The notes under the pieces were generated by a model. The model made no database searches. It was not told the origin of the DNA and was given only the letters and a program-made list of their open reading frames with translations. From the NCBI GenBank assembly GCA_002309215.1, contig DBXG01000023.1:10086-74085 (forward strand): DNA of 64,000 bases, written 5' to 3'. This stretch comes from Alphaproteobacteria bacterium UBA1218 (GTDB lineage Bacteria > Pseudomonadota > Alphaproteobacteria > Rs-D84). Below are positions 25,279-43,022 of the stretch, piece after piece. Numbering within the stretch: the first letter of the stretch is position 1; each line of letters opens with the position of its first letter. The position numbers and the translations under genes are program-made.

Positions 25279-25303
25279 AAAACCGGCAAATGCCGGCTTT
25301 TTA
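25279..25303 (-). terminator. rho-independent terminator (hairpin CCGGC-AAAT-GCCGG) downstream of the acyl-CoA synthetase pair
   Basis: GC hairpin with T/A runs on both sides. Confidence 0.65.
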
Positions 25304-25305
25304 GT

Positions 25306-26886
25306 TTACTCTTTTCTGTCCGGATACATGCCGTCTATCAAATTCTGACGAACGATGTGATGTTTTACCTTTTGCGTACTGGTCACTGGCAAATCTTCAG
25401 TCGTCATCGCAAAGTGTGTCACCCATTTATACGATGCGATTTTCTTGTTCGCAGATGCTACTTCTTGGGACAACTTGTCCATTGTCATTTCTGGCGCGAC
25501 CTGGAATACGGCATATGTGACAGTTTTATCCTTGACCTTGTGTTCAAACACAGCAACATTTTTCACACCGTCTATTTCCATATATAATGCTTCTAATTCG
25601 TCTGGATACACATTTTTACCAGAATCCAAAACGATAACCTGTTTCTTACGCCCTGCAAAATGCAATTCACCGTTTTTATCCATAAATACCATATCGCCAG
25701 TATTAAAGAATCCGCGATCATCAAAAACTTCTGCATTAACAGTTGGATTGTTCAGGTATCCACCAAACACCTGATGCCCACGCAACCATAAAACACCAAC
25801 ACCATTTTCATCTTTATCACGAATTTCACATTCGTTATTTGATGTTGGTCCACCAACAGAATAAGCCAATCTTTTGCTGGTCGGTTTTGATATACAAATT
25901 GGTCCCACAGTTTCAGTTAAACCATATCCCTGAATAAATGCCAAACCAAGCGATTCATAGAAGTTTTCAACCTCTGGCTTGGTCGCTGCGCCACCTGCAA
26001 TCAGCAATCTGGCACGACCACCAAATATCTCTAACAACGGCTCTTGAACTTTACGAACAAAGAAAGACAAACCCATATCCTGTAAAGTTTTTTGGTTGTT
26101 CAGAATAAACGATGCAACACGCCATTTTTTCTGTGCCTTCATATTATCCATAATTTTGTTACGGAATAATTCCCATATACGCGGAACCGCAGGTATAACA
26201 TGTGGCTTAAACGTCTTGAAATCGTCCAAAATATATTTTGGATTGATTGTCGGCTGTAATACCAAACCACCACCAAAATGTATTGTTGCCAGAATACCAA
26301 TTGAAAAACCAAATATATGATACAACGGCAAAAAGCCATACATAATATCCCCAGAATGATAATATTCAGACATATCTTCCAAAGAATTCGCACACTCAAT
26401 CAAATTGAAATGTGTTAACGGGACAACCTTTGGCGTTCCTGTCGAACCAGATGTAAAAGACATCAAAGCAACATCTGTGGTCTCAGACGGGAAAGCGCGC
26501 AAATCATAATCTATGTCACCATCTTTTCTGGTTATATCAAAGAAGGTAAACTTATCTGTTTTATAAAAAAATGAAGGTTCGGCACAAACGAATTTGCACC
26601 CTGCTATCTCTGTCATATTATCATATTCAAATGGTGTCAGATTTGTATCCAACATCAAAACCGTTCCACCCAAATACCATATTGCAAACAGAGTCAAAGG
26701 AAACTGAGGCAAATTATGTGATAATATACCAACAATATCACCTGCTTTGACGCCCGCATCACGCAAAGTTGCCGCGCGCGCGCGCACCTGGGTCACAAAT
26801 TGTGAATAAGTCACACCTTCGCGAACCAAGAAAAGATTTTCAGGCCATTGATTTGCTGCATTTTCCAATTTTTGATACATATTCAT
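25306..26886 (-). CDS. AMP-dependent synthetase/ligase (long-chain acyl-CoA synthetase-like), paralog 1
   Basis: 526 aa. FTSGSTGTPK AMP-binding motif, YGLTET, GDM...D..G.LHFAGRKK. Confidence 0.8.
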   Translation of the reverse strand: MNMYQKLENAANQWPENLFLVREGVTYSQFVTQVRARAATLRDAGVKAGDIVGILSHNLPQFPLTLFAIWYLGGTVLMLDTNLTPFEYDNMTEIAGCKFVCAEPSFFYKTDKFTFFDITRKDGDIDYDLRAFPSETTDVALMSFTSGSTGTPKVVPLTHFNLIECANSLEDMSEYYHSGDIMYGFLPLYHIFGFSIGILATIHFGGGLVLQPTINPKYILDDFKTFKPHVIPAVPRIWELFRNKIMDNMKAQKKWRVASFILNNQKTLQDMGLSFFVRKVQEPLLEIFGGRARLLIAGGAATKPEVENFYESLGLAFIQGYGLTETVGPICISKPTSKRLAYSVGGPTSNNECEIRDKDENGVGVLWLRGHQVFGGYLNNPTVNAEVFDDRGFFNTGDMVFMDKNGELHFAGRKKQVIVLDSGKNVYPDELEALYMEIDGVKNVAVFEHKVKDKTVTYAVFQVAPEMTMDKLSQEVASANKKIASYKWVTHFAMTTEDLPVTSTQKVKHHIVRQNLIDGMYPDRKE

Positions 26887-26912
26887 ATTGTGCCAACCTT
26901 TTATTTCTTTAT

Positions 26913-28490
26913 TTATTCATGTCTGTCTGGATATTTTCCGTCAATCAACCATTGACGAACAACATGATGCTTGATTTTTTGTGTACTTGTCACAGGTAAA
27001 TCTTCCGTTGTCATTGCAAAATGTGTCACCCATTTATATGAAGCAACTTTTTTGTTCTTTTCTGCAACAGCCGCAGCCAATTTTTCCATTGTCATACCGT
27101 CTTCCACAGAAAACACACCGTATGCAACAGTTTTACCTTTGACTTCGTGTTCAAACACAGCGACATTTTTAACACCCGGGATTTCGATAAACAAGCCTTC
27201 CAATTCATCTGGATATACATTTTTACCAGAATCCAAAACGATAACTTGTTTTTTACGACCTGCAAAATGATATTCGCCATTTTTATCAATAGAAACCAAG
27301 TCACCGGTACAGAAGAAACCGTTTTTATCAAAGCATTCTTTGTTAGCTTCTTCATTATTCAGATAACCGCCAAATACTTGATCACCACGAACCCATAACA
27401 TACCGATACCATTTTCATCAGTATTACGGATTTCACAGCAACTGCCACCCAATGGTGCGCCAAATGCAAACGGAACACGTTTTTTAACAGGTTTAGAGCA
27501 ACAGATTGGCCCAACGGTTTCTGTCATACCATAACCCTGAACAAAAGCGATGCCCAATTTATTATAGAAGTTTTCAACTTCTGGTTTGGTCGCCGCACCA
27601 CCTGCAACCATACAGCGAACTTTTCCGCCAAACACAGAACGAATTTGGTCCAGCACTTTATCAACTAATTTTCCAAGACCGATTACACGCAAGGTTTTTT
27701 GATGATTCATGATGAAAGACACCAAGCCCCATTTCTTTTTAGCCTTGATACCATCAATAATTTTTTTGCGGAAAATCTCGAACAATTTTGGAACTGCAGG
27801 AATAATCTGTGGTTTATATGTAGCAAAATCTTGCAAAATCGCATTTGGATTGATTGTTGGTTGCAATAAAATGCTCATTCCAAAATGCATAGGCGCCAAG
27901 AAACCAACTGCAAACCCAAAAACATGATACAAAGGCAAGAAAGCATACATTGTTTCGCCATGACGCAAAAACATACTCAAAGTCTCTAAACCTTCTGAAC
28001 AAGAAACCAAGTTTTTATGTGTCAAAGGAACAATTTTTGGTGTTCCTGTGGAACCAGATGTAAACGACAATGTCGCAATATCATCATCTTTCAGTTTATG
28101 TTGTTTAACTTCTGCGCCTTCTTTATCTTTGGTTTCAATATCAAAGAACTCGAAATTTTTGGTTTTATAAAAGAAAGATTTTTCAGCCACAACCATTTTG
28201 CAGTCTGTCAATTTGGTCATATTATCGTATTCTTCTGGCGTCAGATTTGTATCCAATAACAACACCCTGCCACCCAAATACCAAATCGCAAATAAACTAT
28301 AAATAAATTGTGGCAAATTGTGAGATAACACACCAACAGTATCGCCAGCCTTGACCCCAGCGTTTGCCAAAGATGCAGCACGCGCCTTGATATATTTTGG
28401 CAAATCACCAAAAGTAATATTTTCACGTACCAAGAAAAGCATATTGCCATTTTTCTTGATATTTTGTTCTAACAAATCATACATTGTCAT
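26913..28490 (-). CDS. AMP-dependent synthetase/ligase, paralog 2 (tandem duplicate)
   Basis: About 525 aa and colinear with paralog 1 over its full length. Start chosen at MTMYDLLEQ (AAGGA 8 nt upstream) instead of the upstream in-frame ATG. Confidence 0.8.
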   Translation of the reverse strand: MTMYDLLEQNIKKNGNMLFLVRENITFGDLPKYIKARAASLANAGVKAGDTVGVLSHNLPQFIYSLFAIWYLGGRVLLLDTNLTPEEYDNMTKLTDCKMVVAEKSFFYKTKNFEFFDIETKDKEGAEVKQHKLKDDDIATLSFTSGSTGTPKIVPLTHKNLVSCSEGLETLSMFLRHGETMYAFLPLYHVFGFAVGFLAPMHFGMSILLQPTINPNAILQDFATYKPQIIPAVPKLFEIFRKKIIDGIKAKKKWGLVSFIMNHQKTLRVIGLGKLVDKVLDQIRSVFGGKVRCMVAGGAATKPEVENFYNKLGIAFVQGYGMTETVGPICCSKPVKKRVPFAFGAPLGGSCCEIRNTDENGIGMLWVRGDQVFGGYLNNEEANKECFDKNGFFCTGDLVSIDKNGEYHFAGRKKQVIVLDSGKNVYPDELEGLFIEIPGVKNVAVFEHEVKGKTVAYGVFSVEDGMTMEKLAAAVAEKNKKVASYKWVTHFAMTTEDLPVTSTQKIKHHVVRQWLIDGKYPDRHE

Positions 28491-35275: not shown

Positions 35276-35416
35276 ATTTTTCAGTGCCGCGCCGTAGCAT
35301 TTGTTCAAGACAAAAGAAAACAATTCACAATTAGCGGCGTAGGCGGGCAAAATAATACTTATATTCGCCACGATTGACGCGCAGCCGGCACAAATTGCCG
35401 TGCGAGCGAGTCCACC
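35276..35416 (+). pseudogene. decayed tandem duplicate of the tRNA-Tyr unit
   Basis: Direct repeat of CAGTGyCrCGCCGTAGCA (35092 vs 35276) and of the tRNA 3' end GAsTCCACCCGCyCCC (35209 vs 35401). The middle is divergent and no cloverleaf can be drawn. Confidence 0.35.
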
Positions 35417-35447
35417 CGCCCCCTATTTTTCCTATCATCGAATAATC

Positions 35448-38402: not shown

Positions 38403-39317
38403 ATGTATAAGTTTTCTGTTTTACGCCAAGTTTCAGCAACCATAGCAGGCTTATTTGGTACGACACGTGAATCACGCAGATTGAAACGCGATAAAATTAA
38501 ATTCCATGGTCTGATTGAAACGGTTGGTCAAAACAGATTACCACGTGAAAAATATGCAAAACGTATCCCGATATCTTTTTGTTTTGATGCGCGCGGTTGT
38601 AAGTTAGCAGCGGTATCAATAAAATCTTTGCTGGACGCATCACATGGACGCTGTGATTATGATATTTATTGCGTTGTGACTGATGATGTTGATAAGTCAT
38701 TACAAAACATAATAACAAACATAGTTGATGATTCGGAATCCAAGGTTTATTTCTTGAACGGCAATAATGATTTTGATAAATCTTATCGTGCAAAATGGCC
38801 GATTGCAGTATGGTACAGATTAATGTTGCCAAAATTATTACCGAACATTGACAAGATTATATATGCAGATATTGATATAATATTCTGTAATGATTTGATT
38901 GATGTATATGAATTAGACATGGGGACAAATATTGTTGCAGGCGTTCCAACACAAAAAAACGGATATATAAACTCTGGCTTTTTGGTTATGGATTTGGCAA
39001 AGATTCGCGCAGAAAAAGTTTATGAAAAATGGATAAAAGCTTCCCAATCTGAAAAATACGAAAACCCAGACCAAGATTGCCTGAACTATACACTTGAAAA
39101 CCGTAAATTATTTTTACCAGTGAAATATAATTTTCAGGCACGCCTGGGTTCACGAATATTCCAAATGTATTCTGAAATAGAACTTGATGACTTGAAACAT
39201 AATTTGGTAGTAATGCACTATTCTAATTATATCAAACCATGGAGCAATATCAGCGCACGCCCAATATATTCAGAAATATGGTGGAATACCGCCCATAAAA
39301 CAGGTCTGTTTGAATAA
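38403..39317 (+). CDS. glycosyltransferase family 8 (LPS alpha-1,3-glycosyltransferase-like)
   Basis: 304 aa. IPISFCFD, YADIDIIF DXD and NSGFLVMD motifs typical of GT8/RfaJ-like enzymes. Confidence 0.7.
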   Translation: MYKFSVLRQVSATIAGLFGTTRESRRLKRDKIKFHGLIETVGQNRLPREKYAKRIPISFCFDARGCKLAAVSIKSLLDASHGRCDYDIYCVVTDDVDKSLQNIITNIVDDSESKVYFLNGNNDFDKSYRAKWPIAVWYRLMLPKLLPNIDKIIYADIDIIFCNDLIDVYELDMGTNIVAGVPTQKNGYINSGFLVMDLAKIRAEKVYEKWIKASQSEKYENPDQDCLNYTLENRKLFLPVKYNFQARLGSRIFQMYSEIELDDLKHNLVVMHYSNYIKPWSNISARPIYSEIWWNTAHKTGLFE

Positions 39318-39329
39318 TCATTATTCCAA

Positions 39330-39600
39330 AACATCATCCAAACAATGCTCTCTTGCCAAGAGTGGTATAAGTTCCCCGCCCAAAGTCAAGTTCTCCCTGT
39401 ATGATGGGAACTTGCTCTCGAACTAGACTGATACTAGTTCCCCACCCGTGGCGGGGTGGATTGTGACGCAGTCACAAGACGGGGCGGGTATTCCGGTGTG
39501 TTCGTAATGCCGAACGTCTGGAACAGAAATTATTTGCCCCCTCCCCGCCATTCTGGCCCTCCCCTCCGTTGGAGGGGAATTAAAATCGATCAATAATAAA
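39330..39600. repeat. GC-rich mosaic palindromic repeat cluster, copy 1 (modules C-A-B)
   Basis: Hairpin modules CCACCCG/CGGGGTGG, GTGAC-GCA-GTCAC and CCCCTCC/GGAGGGG. About 140 nt (39445-39585) are roughly 85% identical to 42352-42490 in the same orientation, and 39406-39460 matches 42484-42535. Confidence 0.8.
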
Positions 39601-39709
39601 AAATCTGCACATAGCAAAGAAAGACTTTTTAACATTTTGCAAAATAATATTTTGTTTGTGTGCCTTTTTATGATATAATATCAATAAACTTAAATGTAGG
39701 AGTCCACAA

Positions 39710-40075
39710 ATGAAAGCACAATTTTTGATTATTTTCGGCGTATTCTTTGGCTTTGTATCGATTGCAAATGCTGCGCTGGTTGTAAAAAACGATACCATGG
39801 CCAAAAATGAAGCATACGAAGAATTGACCCTGGAAGATGCGCGTACAATCCAAACATTGGAAAACGATATTCGTATCTTGGATTCAGAAATTAAAAAGTG
39901 TGAAAAATCAAAGAAAGGTTGGATTGCTGGCACAGTAATTGGTAGTGCTGGCGTTGCTGCAACTGGTATCGCTGCGATTGTTCAAGGTGTTCAAATCAGC
40001 AAAGCAAAAGACCAAAAGAAAGCGCTTGAAAAAGAAACAAAAGAATTGAAAGCAAAAAACGAAAAAAATAAATAA
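39710..40075 (+). CDS. secreted/membrane glycine-zipper protein (121 aa), paralog of the N-terminal module of the next gene
   Basis: Signal peptide, coiled-coil, KKCEKSKKGWIAGTVIGSAGVAATGIAAIVQGV glycine-zipper segment and a Lys/Glu-rich tail. Confidence 0.55.
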   Translation: MKAQFLIIFGVFFGFVSIANAALVVKNDTMAKNEAYEELTLEDARTIQTLENDIRILDSEIKKCEKSKKGWIAGTVIGSAGVAATGIAAIVQGVQISKAKDQKKALEKETKELKAKNEKNK

Positions 40076-40101
40076 AGTTTGATTAACCATAGGTTCTTTT
40101 T

Positions 40102-42096
40102 ATGAAAAAAGCATTTATATCCAGTTTGATAATGTCATTTACGTGTATCGCATGTTATGCCCAGCATCCACGTATTACGCAATTAATTGCTGAAAAGCAG
40201 GCCAAGATGGAAAAATTGGAAAAGTGCCAGGGAACAACCAAAAGTCTGAAGATTGCTGGTATATCAACATTGGGTATAACTGCTGTTGGTGTTGGCGCCA
40301 ATATTGCAGAGGCTGTAGTTCTAAATAACGCCAAGGAAGATGTTGCCAAGGCAAAAAAAGCACGCGATGACGAACAAAAGAAGAAAAATGAACGTGAAGC
40401 CGCAGAAAAGAAAAGACAAGAAGAAGAAAGACAAAGATTGGAAGAAGAAAGAAAAAGACAAGAATGCGACAGTAGAAACGCTGTGTATGTCAATGGTGTT
40501 TGCGGTGGATGTAAAGACGGTTATATCGCAGATACAAGTGGTAATTGTGTAGAAAAACCGAAACCAGATGAACAACAAGGCGATGGCGATAAGCAGGAGG
40601 ATAAAAAATCTGGCGAAAACGAAAATGTCAAACCAAGTGCACCTAAAAAAGTTCCGGCCCAGGAAAGTGTTATAGATGTTGATTTTGATCAAATTGTAAA
40701 GTATTCACAATTGAAAACAGGAATCACAAATAAAATCAAGACCGATTATGAATGCGAAGGTAATACAGACCCAGAATGGGTATTTGGGTTTACTTGGAAA
40801 ACAACGTGTGGTGGCAAAACATACAATATCGCATTCCGTGGCGTAGATTGTGAAATCCAAGGCAGAGAATTCCAAGATGGCAAATGTATAGAAAACGCAG
40901 ATTTACCGAAAAACGAATGTGAACAGTATGGTACAATGCAAGGTAACATTTGTGTCTGGGCAGAAACCGTAGAAATTGGAGATGAAGACATCAAAAGACA
41001 TATTTTCGATACATTGAAAAATGATTATGGTTTTACAAACGTATCTGAGCAATCTAAATCTGAAACGGCATACATATTTAGCGCAAAAACACCAGAAAAA
41101 AATGTTCTTTTAACACTTCAGTTCAATGTAAAGTGTCAAAATGAAAAACAAAAAGTAGATACAAATAGCAATAATTGTGTTGATGCAGATAAAGTGACTG
41201 CGAAACCGGCAGATAGTAAGCCAAAGGCAGTTGCAGGTGATTTTGTTGAAACACTTTGCAAAAATAATGGAGGAACATTCAATGATAAAAGCCTTGTATG
41301 TACTAATCTAAAGGTTAACACATTGGCAAAATATAACGAAATAGTAAATCAGCTGAAAAACAACAATTTTAGATGCATAGAAGACAAAATGACTTCTTGT
41401 AATGATGGTAAACACGTGGTGGACATTGAACGTGATGGTGAAACAATGTTTGGGTATATTTGTAGAGAAAGCGGTTGGCACTATGATGCTGGTCGTAAAA
41501 CCTGTTATGTTGGTGGTAGTGTAAATACTCCTGCAAAACCAACGACTGCAAAAGATTGGCTTGCACAAAAAGCAAAAGCAGAATTTGATGGCAGAGGTTG
41601 TTCTTCAGAAAAATTTGAAGTTACTGATACATATACTGCGATTAAATGTAATAATGGATTTTCGCTTGCTTATTCATACAAAAACTTAACCTGTGGAGAG
41701 AACGAAGTCTTGAGGGGCTTGAGAGAGGAGGCGCAGTGTGTAGAATGCGCAGATGACGAATGGGTTAAAGATGGCGAGTGTAAACCAGTAAGATGTAAAG
41801 ATTATGTGTATACAGTCGTAAAGAATCATGATTGCTATTGGAAGGCTGGCAGGTTCACCATCACTGATTTGGAAGACGGAAGAGTTAAAGATAAAAGTGA
41901 GGCACGAGACTGGATAAACAAATGGTTTACCAAAGCTCTTAATCAGCGGAGCGCCATGGCAACTGAGTTTAACTGTAAGGTTACTGAAGCAAATTATGTT
42001 ATTGGTAAAGATGTTGTTGAATGTAGCCTTGGTAATACAACATTTGAATTTAAGATTCAGAACATAAGTGGTGCAAGTGTCGGTGATAAACTCTGA
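40102..42096 (+). CDS. large secreted Cys-rich protein (664 aa) with glycine-zipper N-terminal module and KE-rich coiled coil
   Basis: Signal peptide. EKCQGTTKSLKIAGISTLGITAVGVGANIAEAV parallels the preceding protein. Then a KKRQEEERQRLEEERKRQ charged helix, followed by about 500 aa with about 40 Cys in repeated CxxC / C...C patterns. Confidence 0.6.
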   Translation: MKKAFISSLIMSFTCIACYAQHPRITQLIAEKQAKMEKLEKCQGTTKSLKIAGISTLGITAVGVGANIAEAVVLNNAKEDVAKAKKARDDEQKKKNEREAAEKKRQEEERQRLEEERKRQECDSRNAVYVNGVCGGCKDGYIADTSGNCVEKPKPDEQQGDGDKQEDKKSGENENVKPSAPKKVPAQESVIDVDFDQIVKYSQLKTGITNKIKTDYECEGNTDPEWVFGFTWKTTCGGKTYNIAFRGVDCEIQGREFQDGKCIENADLPKNECEQYGTMQGNICVWAETVEIGDEDIKRHIFDTLKNDYGFTNVSEQSKSETAYIFSAKTPEKNVLLTLQFNVKCQNEKQKVDTNSNNCVDADKVTAKPADSKPKAVAGDFVETLCKNNGGTFNDKSLVCTNLKVNTLAKYNEIVNQLKNNNFRCIEDKMTSCNDGKHVVDIERDGETMFGYICRESGWHYDAGRKTCYVGGSVNTPAKPTTAKDWLAQKAKAEFDGRGCSSEKFEVTDTYTAIKCNNGFSLAYSYKNLTCGENEVLRGLREEAQCVECADDEWVKDGECKPVRCKDYVYTVVKNHDCYWKAGRFTITDLEDGRVKDKSEARDWINKWFTKALNQRSAMATEFNCKVTEANYVIGKDVVECSLGNTTFEFKIQNISGASVGDKL

Positions 42097-42120
42097 TTCA
42101 ATATTTACAAAGTTCTAACA

Positions 42121-42147
42121 AATCCCCGTTGTACGGGGATTTTTTTC
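42121..42147 (+). terminator. rho-independent terminator after the 664-aa gene
   Basis: ATCCCCGT-TGTA-CGGGGAT followed by T7. Confidence 0.75.
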
Positions 42148-42179
42148 AATTCCCACCTGATACTGGTTCGCTCGACATT

Positions 42180-42540
42180 ACGTGTCTATGCGTATACCGT
42201 AACGACTACGAGTAAGTGAAAACGAACAAGGCGAAGTTTGAATATTAAGGAGTGCCACGCAGGGCGAAGCCCGAGTGATTTCGCTACACTTCGTTTGCAA
42301 AATCTACTTGTATTCCCCACCCGAAGTCTCGACGTAGCGATAGCGAAGACGGACGTGGCGGGGTGGATTGTGACGCAGTCACAAGACGGGGCGGGTATTC
42401 TGGTGTGTGCGTAATAACGAATGTCTGGAACAATAACAATTTGAACCCTCCCCGTCCTGCGGGCCCTCCCCTCCAATGGAGGTGAACTTGCTCTCAAACT
42501 AGACTGATACTAGTTCCCCGCCTGGGGCGGGGGGGACCGC
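42180..42540. repeat. GC-rich mosaic palindromic repeat cluster, copy 2 (X-A-B-C)
   Basis: Shares modules A and B (42352-42490) and module C (42484-42535) with copy 1. The 5' part has additional CGAAG-containing palindromes. Confidence 0.8.
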
Positions 42541-42605
42541 TTGCGGTGGGGAGGGTTGTGTTTTTAATATTGAACAAAACATATTTTCAACATAAAATTA
42601 AAATT

Positions 42606-42953
42606 ATGTACGGTTATAATAAACAACTTAAAGGTTTAGCACGTGCCAATCGTAATGCTGGCAATTTAGCCGAAGTATTACTTTGGCATGAATTACAACG
42701 TTGTAAACTTGGGGTCAGGTTCACTCGACAGAAACCTATTGGAAATTATATTGCTGATTTTTATTGTCGTGAAAAGAAATTGGTTATCGAAATAGACGGT
42801 TGGTCACATGACAATAAATACGAATATGATAAAACACGCGATGAATATATGAAATCTTTGGGGATACATGTATTAAGAATATCAGACAAAGATACAAGAA
42901 AAGATATGGCAAATGTCTTGATATGGATAAAGCATAACATAGACACAATATAA
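42606..42953 (+). CDS. DUF559-family endonuclease-like protein (Vsr/PD-(D/E)XK fold)
   Basis: About 115 aa. GNYIADFYCREKKLVIEIDGWSHD...D matches the DUF559 core (D...E.D). Embedded between repeat copies. Confidence 0.65.
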   Translation: MYGYNKQLKGLARANRNAGNLAEVLLWHELQRCKLGVRFTRQKPIGNYIADFYCREKKLVIEIDGWSHDNKYEYDKTRDEYMKSLGIHVLRISDKDTRKDMANVLIWIKHNIDTI

Positions 42954-42959
42954 AATACA

Positions 42960-43022
42960 ACCCTCCCCGTCGCTTCGCGCCACCCCGCCTCAGGCGGGGA
43001 ACTTACTCTCGAACTAGGTTGA
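42960..43022. repeat. short third copy of repeat modules (B-end plus C-start)
   Basis: CCCTCCCCG...GGCGGGGAACTTACTCTCGAACTAG is related to 39540-39430 and 42440-42505. Confidence 0.6.

Follow-up and report, generated by a model that had tools for sequence, protein, structure and literature searches.

Inverted palindromic repeats around a DUF559 gene in a gut alphaproteobacterium, and a possible REPIN/RAYT-like arrangement

The DNA analysed here, termed the window, is a 64,000-nt stretch of contig DBXG01000023.1 of Alphaproteobacteria bacterium UBA1218, in which three intergenic loci between positions 39,330 and 43,022 carry GC-rich palindromic repeats, and a small gene of the DUF559 family lies between two of these repeats. 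A preliminary description of the window had reported hairpin modules common to the three loci, and this was borne out, with all four named modules present in the sequence; the observation of GC-rich palindromic repeats is confirmed. Copies 1 and 2 were alike over 133 nt with 86% identity, in direct orientation and at an offset of 2907 nt, in agreement with the approximately 140 nt, 85% and 2.9 kb described earlier. The block called module C was shared by copies 1 and 2 over 58 nt (88% identity, offset 3076 nt), and a 78-nt repeat family ties all three loci together. The repeat islands consisted of 57–68% G+C compared to 37.0% for the 64-kb window; their described GC-richness stood, while the 33% given for the background did not. 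Repeat searches and the covariance model revealed no repeats in the 64-kb window beyond the 39330–43022 locus. As to whether the repeats are dispersed or unique to this locus, copies were found in related genomes, and within the window at this place only.

All three loci are built from one arm type of 47–57 nt, which is repeated six times as three convergent inverted pairs (Table 1). Read from 5' to 3', the arm consisted of (A)GTT, a 7-nt C-block, a 3–4-nt loop, a complementary G-block, a mini-hairpin with a 4–5 bp stem and a loop that is usually GAA, GCA or GTA, and a G-tract (GGGGAGG or GGGGCGG) which is the mirror of the G-block. On direct reading, each of the six window arms fitted this C-block/G-block/mirror-G design with at most one mismatch. 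A covariance model trained on ten arms detected exactly six arms in the window, all of them in the three loci (E from 1e-15 to 0.06), and 81 arms at E ≤ 1 in the 215 kb made up of the window and related loci, where they occurred mostly as convergent pairs. Units 1 and 2 enclose a centre of approximately 42 nt (module D), while unit 3 encloses the open reading frame (ORF) at 42606–42953; units 1 and 2 are gene-less miniature forms and unit 3 is the gene-carrying form. Units 2 and 3 stand in tandem. The permuted module order noted earlier is real and is explained by the composition of module C, in which a 24-nt spacer joins the terminal GGGGAAC of one unit to the initial GTTCCCC of the following one. 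A generic triplex-motif finder gave four matches in the window and none in each of 20 window shuffles.

The gene inside unit 3, which had been overlooked in the preliminary description, encodes a DUF559 protein (PF04480, 95.4 bits against a cutoff of 20.6, 2.4e-27). Its nearest solved relative was 3HRL of Neisseria gonorrhoeae. A cross-phylum DUF559 profile compared against structures matched 3HRL (3.5e-42) and 3R3P, the catalytic domain of I-Bth0305I (1.4e-5), with a marginal match to Vsr (E=1.1). Residues E23, D51, E62, D64, H68 and D75 were invariant in the cross-phylum alignment, and D51, D64, H68 and D75 aligned with the EDxHD active site of 3R3P (PMC3239194), the match to which starts past E23. 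The protein is predicted to have a Vsr/EDxHD-like PD-(D/E)XK fold with intact catalytic residues. Comparison of DUF559 copies in differing contexts gave dN/dS values of 0.03–0.17, with dS near saturation, indicating purifying selection and therefore a functional gene. A promoter-like sequence similar to the one ahead of the window gene was also present upstream of the DUF559 gene in the comparison contigs L010 and L013; this hints at a self-contained unit, possibly with a leaderless mRNA, although such matches in the region are not above chance. Exact-protein look-ups returned no match for the window DUF559 protein or for the 664-aa and 121-aa proteins, while LolD was matched. A role of DUF559 as a defence system was considered and set aside, as PADLOC gave only weak nuclease-domain matches.

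The folding of the arm was evaluated on a covariance-model alignment, since a MAFFT alignment lost the register of hairpin 2. In this alignment, 86% of the cells were paired compared to 68% in shuffles, and two-sided compensatory changes were seen in 148 cells against 51.5 ± 6.3 in shuffles and at most 51 in slid controls. The mirror score of G-block against tail had a mean of 5.88 out of 7 compared to 5.40 ± 0.08 with permuted tails, a value reached in 0 of 2000 permutations, whereas the direct-repeat score of the same blocks (5.40) was no better than the permuted value. The mirror partners included GGAGGAG with GAGGTGG, GGGGAAG with GAAGGGG and GGAGGGG with GGGGAGG. Among 71 distinct arms, the hairpin-2 loops were GAA in 15, GCA in eight and GTA in four, and a further 12 carried a GTGAC-GCA-GTCAC hairpin, and the loops were mostly GNA with C-G closing. 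DNA mini-hairpins of exceptional stability, for instance d(GCGAAGC), have this kind of GNA loop closed by C-G. With nearest-neighbour parameters for DNA, the arm formed two hairpins with the G-tail free, and the whole of unit 1 had z = -3.3; RNA folding compared to shuffles gave z = -4.8 for 39340–39600 and z = -3.5 for 42170–42560. The arm structure is under selection for folding, and the compensatory and mirror covariation support a folded structure of single-stranded DNA. With its C-block, complementary G-block and mirror G-block, the arm could represent a potential purine-motif intrastrand triplex of a variant form.

The preliminary description had also raised the possibility of small structured RNAs. 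Rfam searches at gathering and permissive thresholds gave no match in the repeats apart from a lone snoRNA match at chance level (E=6.9), and the mirror covariation and the GNA loops point to folded DNA; an RNA role may nevertheless hold. Wobble counts in the arms (G-T 37, A-C 23) were too close to tell RNA from DNA. According to Holder et al., purine-motif intrastrand triplexes are unable to form in RNA (PMC4666352).

Comparison with related contigs, cited here by L numbers, revealed gain and loss of the units among close strains. L020 was 92–95% identical to the window over 14.5 kb. At site 1, the contigs L020, L047 and L048 share a 36-nt spacer where the window has the 286-nt locus 1, and copy 1 is therefore a recent gain in the lineage of the window. 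A stretch of 52 nt (39484–39535), which includes the centre of unit 1, was 98% identical to the unit centre at site 2 of L042–L044. Site 2 varied in every lineage: L047 and L048 have module X (94% identical, and absent in L012, L020 and L042) and the DUF559 unit without unit 2, L012 has a spacer and the DUF559 unit only, and L020 and L042–L045 have other arms without DUF559. Nesting was observed as well, and the first 29–30 nt of the mini-insert AAGTCTCGACGTAGCGATAGCGAAGACGGAC in the unit 2 left arm were also present in a hairpin-1 loop in the right arm of the DUF559 unit in L047 and L048. The DUF559 unit itself (window 42548–43004) recurs in L010 with 83% nucleotide identity and unrelated flanks.

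As separate observations on this neighbourhood, the independently assembled contigs L021 and L022, which come from one strain or from close strains, break off exactly within the repeats, at window positions 42527 and 42973; such breaks are a sign that the repeats are multi-copy or hairpin-forming and warn of under-counting in metagenome-assembled genomes (MAGs). The family-8 glycosyltransferase gene just upstream of locus 1 (38403–39317) was absent from the syntenic L042–L045, so that the neighbourhood past tRNA-Gly and tRNA-Tyr varies in gene content too.

The repeats are dispersed in gut Alphaproteobacteria resembling Candidatus Enterousia. The exact 22-mer of the core was found in three MAGs, namely a Candidatus Enterousia MAG (4 copies on three contigs, two of them at contig ends), a second Enterousia MAG (one copy) and a goat alphaproteobacterial MAG (one copy), and a 20-mer of the core was present in five JGI metagenome contigs. 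Searches with the 22-mer or 20-mer pattern gave 11 further loci with 12 exact matches, two of which were in L008; viral contigs contained no match to the repeat core. Modules occurred in both orientations in other genomes. The end of L008 consisted of a tandem array with a 177-nt unit, 2.7 copies and a 90% match, and this, together with the tandem arrangement of units 2 and 3 in the window, supports the earlier suggestion of a tandemly propagating unit of about 190 nt. A second family of nested palindromes, with GTCATKCYGAGCGA... arms and a CAGCGCAAAGCGCTG centre, could also be recognised (L001 6993–7945, L010 640–1030, L001 ~1400–1700), and at L001 6993–7945 it lies at the centre of a 373-nt inverted duplication (88%).

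The association of arms with DUF559 extends beyond the window. In the Enterousia-type clade, inverted arms were present on both sides of the gene in 4/4 independent DUF559 contexts (the window/L012/L047 site, L010, the L013 group and the L023 group). Outside the clade, DUF559 loci were collected by tblastn of a plasmid collection, and eight were picked for taxonomic spread with their flanks unseen; C-block/G-block/mirror motifs lay within approximately 250 nt of the ORF in 8/8, mostly on both sides. Besides the gut alphaproteobacterium, the organisms showing the link were E. coli, Neisseria, Photobacterium, Sinorhizobium, Azospirillum, Qipengyuania, Deinococcus and two cyanobacteria. Replicon samples of 50 kb were then scanned by a motif finder blind to DUF559. 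Deinococcus gave two motifs, both of which flank the DUF559 gene sited between paaD and paaZ; three of six motifs in Sinorhizobium lay within 205 nt of DUF559, and one of four in Azospirillum lay at 29 nt. N. gonorrhoeae had 19 motifs including two tandem arrays, one of which ends 199 nt from DUF559, and among the 28 motifs of Photobacterium a 15-copy array begins 67 nt from the gene. A conservative cluster-level Fisher test over the five replicons gave p = 3.6e-4. In the other direction, none of the first six repeat loci had a DUF559 gene within 8 kb; most copies are thus gene-less, and the repeats are no signature of DUF559 proximity. Long tandem arrays of triplex-type motifs, with periods of approximately 145 and 281 nt, were noted in Photobacterium (L054 25211–26795, 43646–44778) and N. 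gonorrhoeae (L052 23915–24609, 32035–34302), respectively.

As a control, ycjD, the DUF559 gene of E. coli, was inspected and had GC-rich palindromes at and past its 3' end. E. coli K-12 contains ycjD together with 23 copies of the TM_ECO repeat, and one of these palindromes, situated 168 nt downstream of ycjD, is TM_ECO no. 9 of Holder et al. (L033 3530–4340). The 3' end of ycjD was also seen to be partly duplicated, overlapping a degenerate BoxC copy (L033). The ycjD allele was present in 3346/5426 complete E. coli genomes, while O157:H7 (L049), inspected among the rest, has eefRABCD at this place. It has been reported that, between fabI and sapF, the eefRABCD operon is replaced by ycjD, with at least two independent eef losses inferred (PMC12817139), and that DUF559 genes are 14-fold enriched among predicted targets of programmed inversion (PMC9881135). 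The number of TM places per record was compared between ycjD-plus and ycjD-minus E. coli, and the differences were too small by this crude measure. A literature search returned no report tying DUF559 or ycjD to BoxC/TM-type repeats.

An inversion that involves a DUF559 gene was observed on comparing L013 with L014 and L015, where a 1.8-kb segment (L013 5311–7116) is inverted between contigs whose flanks are 99.8% identical. DUF559 lies in this segment together with the 3' ends of two paralogues in convergent orientation, with breakpoints in 114–133-nt imperfect inverted repeats inside the genes, and the inversion swaps their C-terminal parts (893/209 aa compared to 933/169 aa) in a shufflon-like manner. 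Neither the segment nor the DNA beside it yielded an identifiable recombinase; no Pfam match is on record for the neighbouring genes. A second, inner inversion between L013 and L015 was not counted, because its perfect repeats of approximately 190 bp exceed the assembler k-mer and it may be an assembly ambiguity.

Among known repeat systems, the closest relatives of the arms are the triplex-type repeats of the BoxC/PIT/TM_ECO class rather than REP or RPE, with triplex folding predicted for the variant seen here. Holder et al. (2015) regarded TM_ECO, BoxC (1992) and the PIT elements described by Hoyne and Maher (2000) as the same repeats, gave their consensus as CCCTCNCCC N3-6 GGGNGAGGG N3 GGGNGAGGG, and described triplex folding in vitro, occurrence in more than 260 genomes, frequent inverted pairs and a tendency to mark unstable loci; the authors found no transposase or integrase near the repeats, and ycjD or endonucleases go unmentioned (PMC4666352). 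The window arms agree with this class in their three-block design, where a C-rich block is followed by its G-rich complement and then by a further G-rich block that is the mirror image of this complement, in their intergenic location, in their frequent inverted pairs, in sites that differ between close strains and in transposase-free surroundings. Rearranged inverted pairs of the TM_ECO kind could be seen in the window as well, where sites 1 and 2 differ among strains that are 92–95% identical. The blocks, however, are 9 nt long in the class and 7 nt in the window arms, the second loop is 3 nt there and 14–25 nt with a GNA mini-hairpin here, and in the commonest subfamily of window arms a C interrupts the G-block. 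The exact TM_ECO consensus had no match in the window or in the Enterousia-type loci, only the E. coli ycjD locus being matched, and the window arms are therefore a structural variant.

The preliminary description had likened the repeats to REP/BIME or RPE elements, which stands as far as they are dispersed intergenic palindromes in the REP/BIME sense, although their closest kin is the BoxC/PIT/TM_ECO class. Short palindromes arranged as inverted doublets with a spacer and in mosaic clusters are common to REP/BIME and REPIN-RAYT, and the REPIN-RAYT system further resembles the window in having dispersed gene-less copies beside a single enzyme gene with an inverted pair of these repeats around it. 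The arms, which start AGTTCCCC and end GGGGAGGGTT, carry no GTAG tag and so are not the tagged 20–40-nt palindromes of REPs, consisting instead of two hairpins and a G-tract; the gene they flank codes for a Vsr-like PD-(D/E)XK nuclease by prediction, in place of the Y1 (HUH) transposase of REPIN-RAYT. CGTC-tagged REPs, which include Rickettsia RPE-4/6 and Neisseria dRS3, are likewise found in alphaproteobacterial hosts as head-to-head dimers with no dedicated transposase known (PMC3733652), and the window arms have a CGTC string directly next to hairpin 2 on their C-rich strand. Their 8–9-bp stems starting with A-T pairs, 4–5-nt loops and CCA tail (PMC3733652) differ from the 5–7 bp stems, GNA loops and G-rich tail of the window arms, and membership was ruled out by this stem and loop geometry. 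RPE elements are in-frame insertions inside protein-coding genes, whereas the six window arms are all intergenic. An integron cassette was rejected, as the GGGGAAC/GTTCCCC arm ends misfit the RYYYAAC...GTTRRRY of attC and gene content was constant between strains; no integrase gene was present among the window proteins scanned. Miniature inverted-repeat transposable elements (MITEs) provide a further parallel, since the arms of units 1 and 2 are of the type seen in the gene-carrying unit, with which they thus share terminal inverted repeats, with nesting and presence/absence polymorphism; they differ in that no target-site duplication was seen here and the encoded DUF559 is not a known transposase. 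I-Bth0305I (3R3P), whose catalytic Asp/His/Asp residues align with those of DUF559, demonstrates that a protein of this fold can mobilise the gene encoding it, but it is located within a group I intron and bears DNA-binding modules at its N-terminus, whereas the 115-aa DUF559 is a bare nuclease domain between repeats.

Based on this architecture, the favoured explanation is a REPIN/RAYT-like arrangement in which the DUF559 nuclease would be the partner of the triplex-type repeats, with a Vsr-like nuclease instead of the tyrosine transposase; the descriptive part of this account is held with high confidence, and the partner role of the nuclease at roughly even odds (about 0.5). The arms themselves are a variant of the known BoxC/PIT class, and the DUF559 link is the new part. 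The nuclease would recognise folded arms in single-stranded DNA and nick or cut there, and repair by copying from another unit would spread units with or without the gene. The same cut-and-copy process would expand arrays, replace neighbouring DNA and promote inversions. Several points weigh against this proposal. The binding or cleavage of arms by DUF559 is a prediction from sequence and architecture, and the absence of a transposase applies to the loci examined. Since most arms and arrays are far from DUF559, action in trans must be assumed. The covariation figures lean toward structure because the alignment was fitted to the model structure, and the mirror effect is modest because all blocks are G-rich. 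The arrival of locus 1 replaced DNA (36 nt) and was not a clean insertion, and the target-site search revealed no clean duplication or precise empty site, the boundaries of site 2 lying within repeated TTCCCC. The comparison loci are all metagenome assemblies, which repeats can break or confuse, and the cross-phylum sample is small.

The strongest competing explanation, though an unlikely one, is that the arms are moved by an unlinked enzyme such as a RAYT/IS200-type transposase, DUF559 being a passenger or a secondary invader, that is, a homing-type nuclease gene targeting unit centres. The excess of gene-less over gene-carrying units fits this view, as do the dependence of REP-type repeats on a single-copy enzyme in trans (PMC3116915) and the sequence relationship of the DUF559 family to a true homing endonuclease. 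No transposase was seen in the loci examined, however, and the authors who studied BoxC/TM repeats (PMC4666352) and CGTC-tagged REPs (PMC3733652) found none associated either. The arm-DUF559 link spans distant phyla with differing arm sequences, as expected for a cognate partner and not for a passenger; a nuclease gene homing into units would show the same. Somewhat less probable again is that nothing here is mobile and that the arms serve the host in a structural or regulatory role (for example by stabilising mRNA 3' ends or as insulators, small RNAs or replication pause sites), with DUF559 acting as a structure-specific repair nuclease or merely being a regulated gene. Loci 1 and 2 do sit 3' of same-strand genes, every window arm is intergenic, the units fold better than shuffles both as RNA and as DNA, and REPs have such roles in E. 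coli (PMC3733652). Against this stand the close strains that lack the units with neighbouring genes unchanged, the canonical terminator at 42120–42142 that already ends the gene upstream of locus 2, the lack of a T-tract in the arms and of an Rfam match, the mirror type of the covariation given that purine-motif triplexes do not form in RNA, the earlier work in which PIT elements had neither promoter nor terminator activity (PMC4666352), and the arm-gene-arm unit between paaD and paaZ in Deinococcus.

The preliminary description had read the repeats as bracketing a secreted-protein cassette whose exchange or deletion they could mediate. Copies 1 and 2, being direct, 2.9 kb apart and 86% identical, could recombine in principle, but this explanation is very improbable: the two secreted-protein genes were present and syntenic in all compared contigs (L012, L020, L042–L045, L047, L048), including those without copy 1 (L020, L047, L048) and those without copy 2 (L020, L042–L045), so that the repeats do not delimit a cassette. 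The 39.6–42.2 kb segment was never deleted or replaced at the repeats among the syntenic contigs examined, the window's lineage acquired copy 1 recently, and the inverted pair brackets the DUF559 gene and not the secreted-protein genes. An origin of the repeats from a protein-coding gene that was duplicated locally and then decayed is hardly credible. The spurious protein-like ORFs reported earlier do exist, on the minus strand over the repeats (39423–39635 and 42186–42497), and share the peptide quoted for them; neither, however, had a Pfam match, a search of 5.8 billion proteins gave no homologue of the 70-aa ORF at 39423–39635, copies differ by compensatory changes in the hairpins, and the modules are seen in either orientation as well as in other genomes.

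Table 1. Features of the repeat loci and the DUF559 gene in the window.
Feature	Positions	Strand	Remarks
Locus 1, whole	39331–39616	.	Takes the place of a 36-nt spacer common to L020, L047 and L048
Degenerate arm remnant	39359–39380		Upstream of junction spacer 39406–39446
Junction spacer (module C)	39406–39446	+	GGGAAC, 24-nt spacer, GTTCCCC
Unit 1 left arm	39436–39492	+	Hairpin 1, GTGAC-GCA-GTCAC mini-hairpin, mirror tract GGGGCGG; 28.9 bits, E=1.6e-5
Unit 1 centre, module D	39493–39534	+	
Unit 1 right arm	39535–39581	-	CCCCTCC/GGAGGGG/mini-hairpin/GGGGAGG, exact mirror; 48 bits, E=3.6e-11
Module X, distinct hairpin-rich insert, 139 nt	42172–42310	+	
Unit 2 left arm, nested insert in hairpin-1 loop	42311–42399	+	16.9 bits, E=0.058
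Mini-insert, 31 nt, AAGTCTCGACGTAGCGATAGCGAAGACGGAC	42314–42344	+	In hairpin-1 loop of unit 2 left arm
Unit 2 centre, module D	42400–42441	+	
Unit 2 right arm	42442–42488	-	46.9 bits, E=7.9e-11
Unit 3 left arm (upstream inverted repeat of DUF559 gene)	42512–42559	+	46.9 bits, E=8e-11
Promoter-like TTGAAC-17-TAAAAT	42570–42598	+	Ends 7 nt before ATG
DUF559 gene, predicted nuclease, 115 aa	42606–42953	+	PF04480, 2.4e-27
Unit 3 right arm (downstream inverted repeat of DUF559 gene)	42957–43003	-	Best model match: 63.2 bits, E=1.2e-15
Right outer spacer GGGGAACTTACTCTCGAACTAGGTTGAG, half of module C	43000–43022	+	Kept in L020 and L042; not in L022

Two further features of the window were recorded. 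A GC-rich stretch at 35378–35427, approximately 140 nt past tRNA-Tyr, has the sequence GACGCGCAGCCGGCACAAATTGCCGTGCGAGCGAGTCCACCCGCCCCC and was not matched by the covariance model. At 25298–28385, two adjacent paralogues of 526 and 537 aa on the minus strand form a 1607-nt tandem duplication with 70–76% identity.

A wider and more tentative extension, which we regard as somewhat less than an even chance, is that small DUF559 nucleases are the missing partner of BoxC/PIT/triplex-type repeats throughout Bacteria, with the arm-DUF559-arm unit as the autonomous form and the dispersed pairs and arrays, including E. coli BoxC and possibly the Neisseria and Photobacterium arrays, as non-autonomous derivatives. 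Such a system would be a second one of the REPIN/RAYT kind, with a structure-specific nuclease acting on single-stranded DNA in folded form, and would account for these loci as hotspots of rearrangement and inversion. These repeats have been known in E. coli since 1992 and in hundreds of genomes without an accepted origin, function or mobility enzyme, and DUF559 is a very large protein family without a known function. A consistent link would explain the strain variability of the loci, the enrichment of DUF559 at predicted inversions and the presence of ycjD at the site of the lost eef operon, and it would give both the repeats and the protein family a testable role, amenable to study in E. coli K-12.

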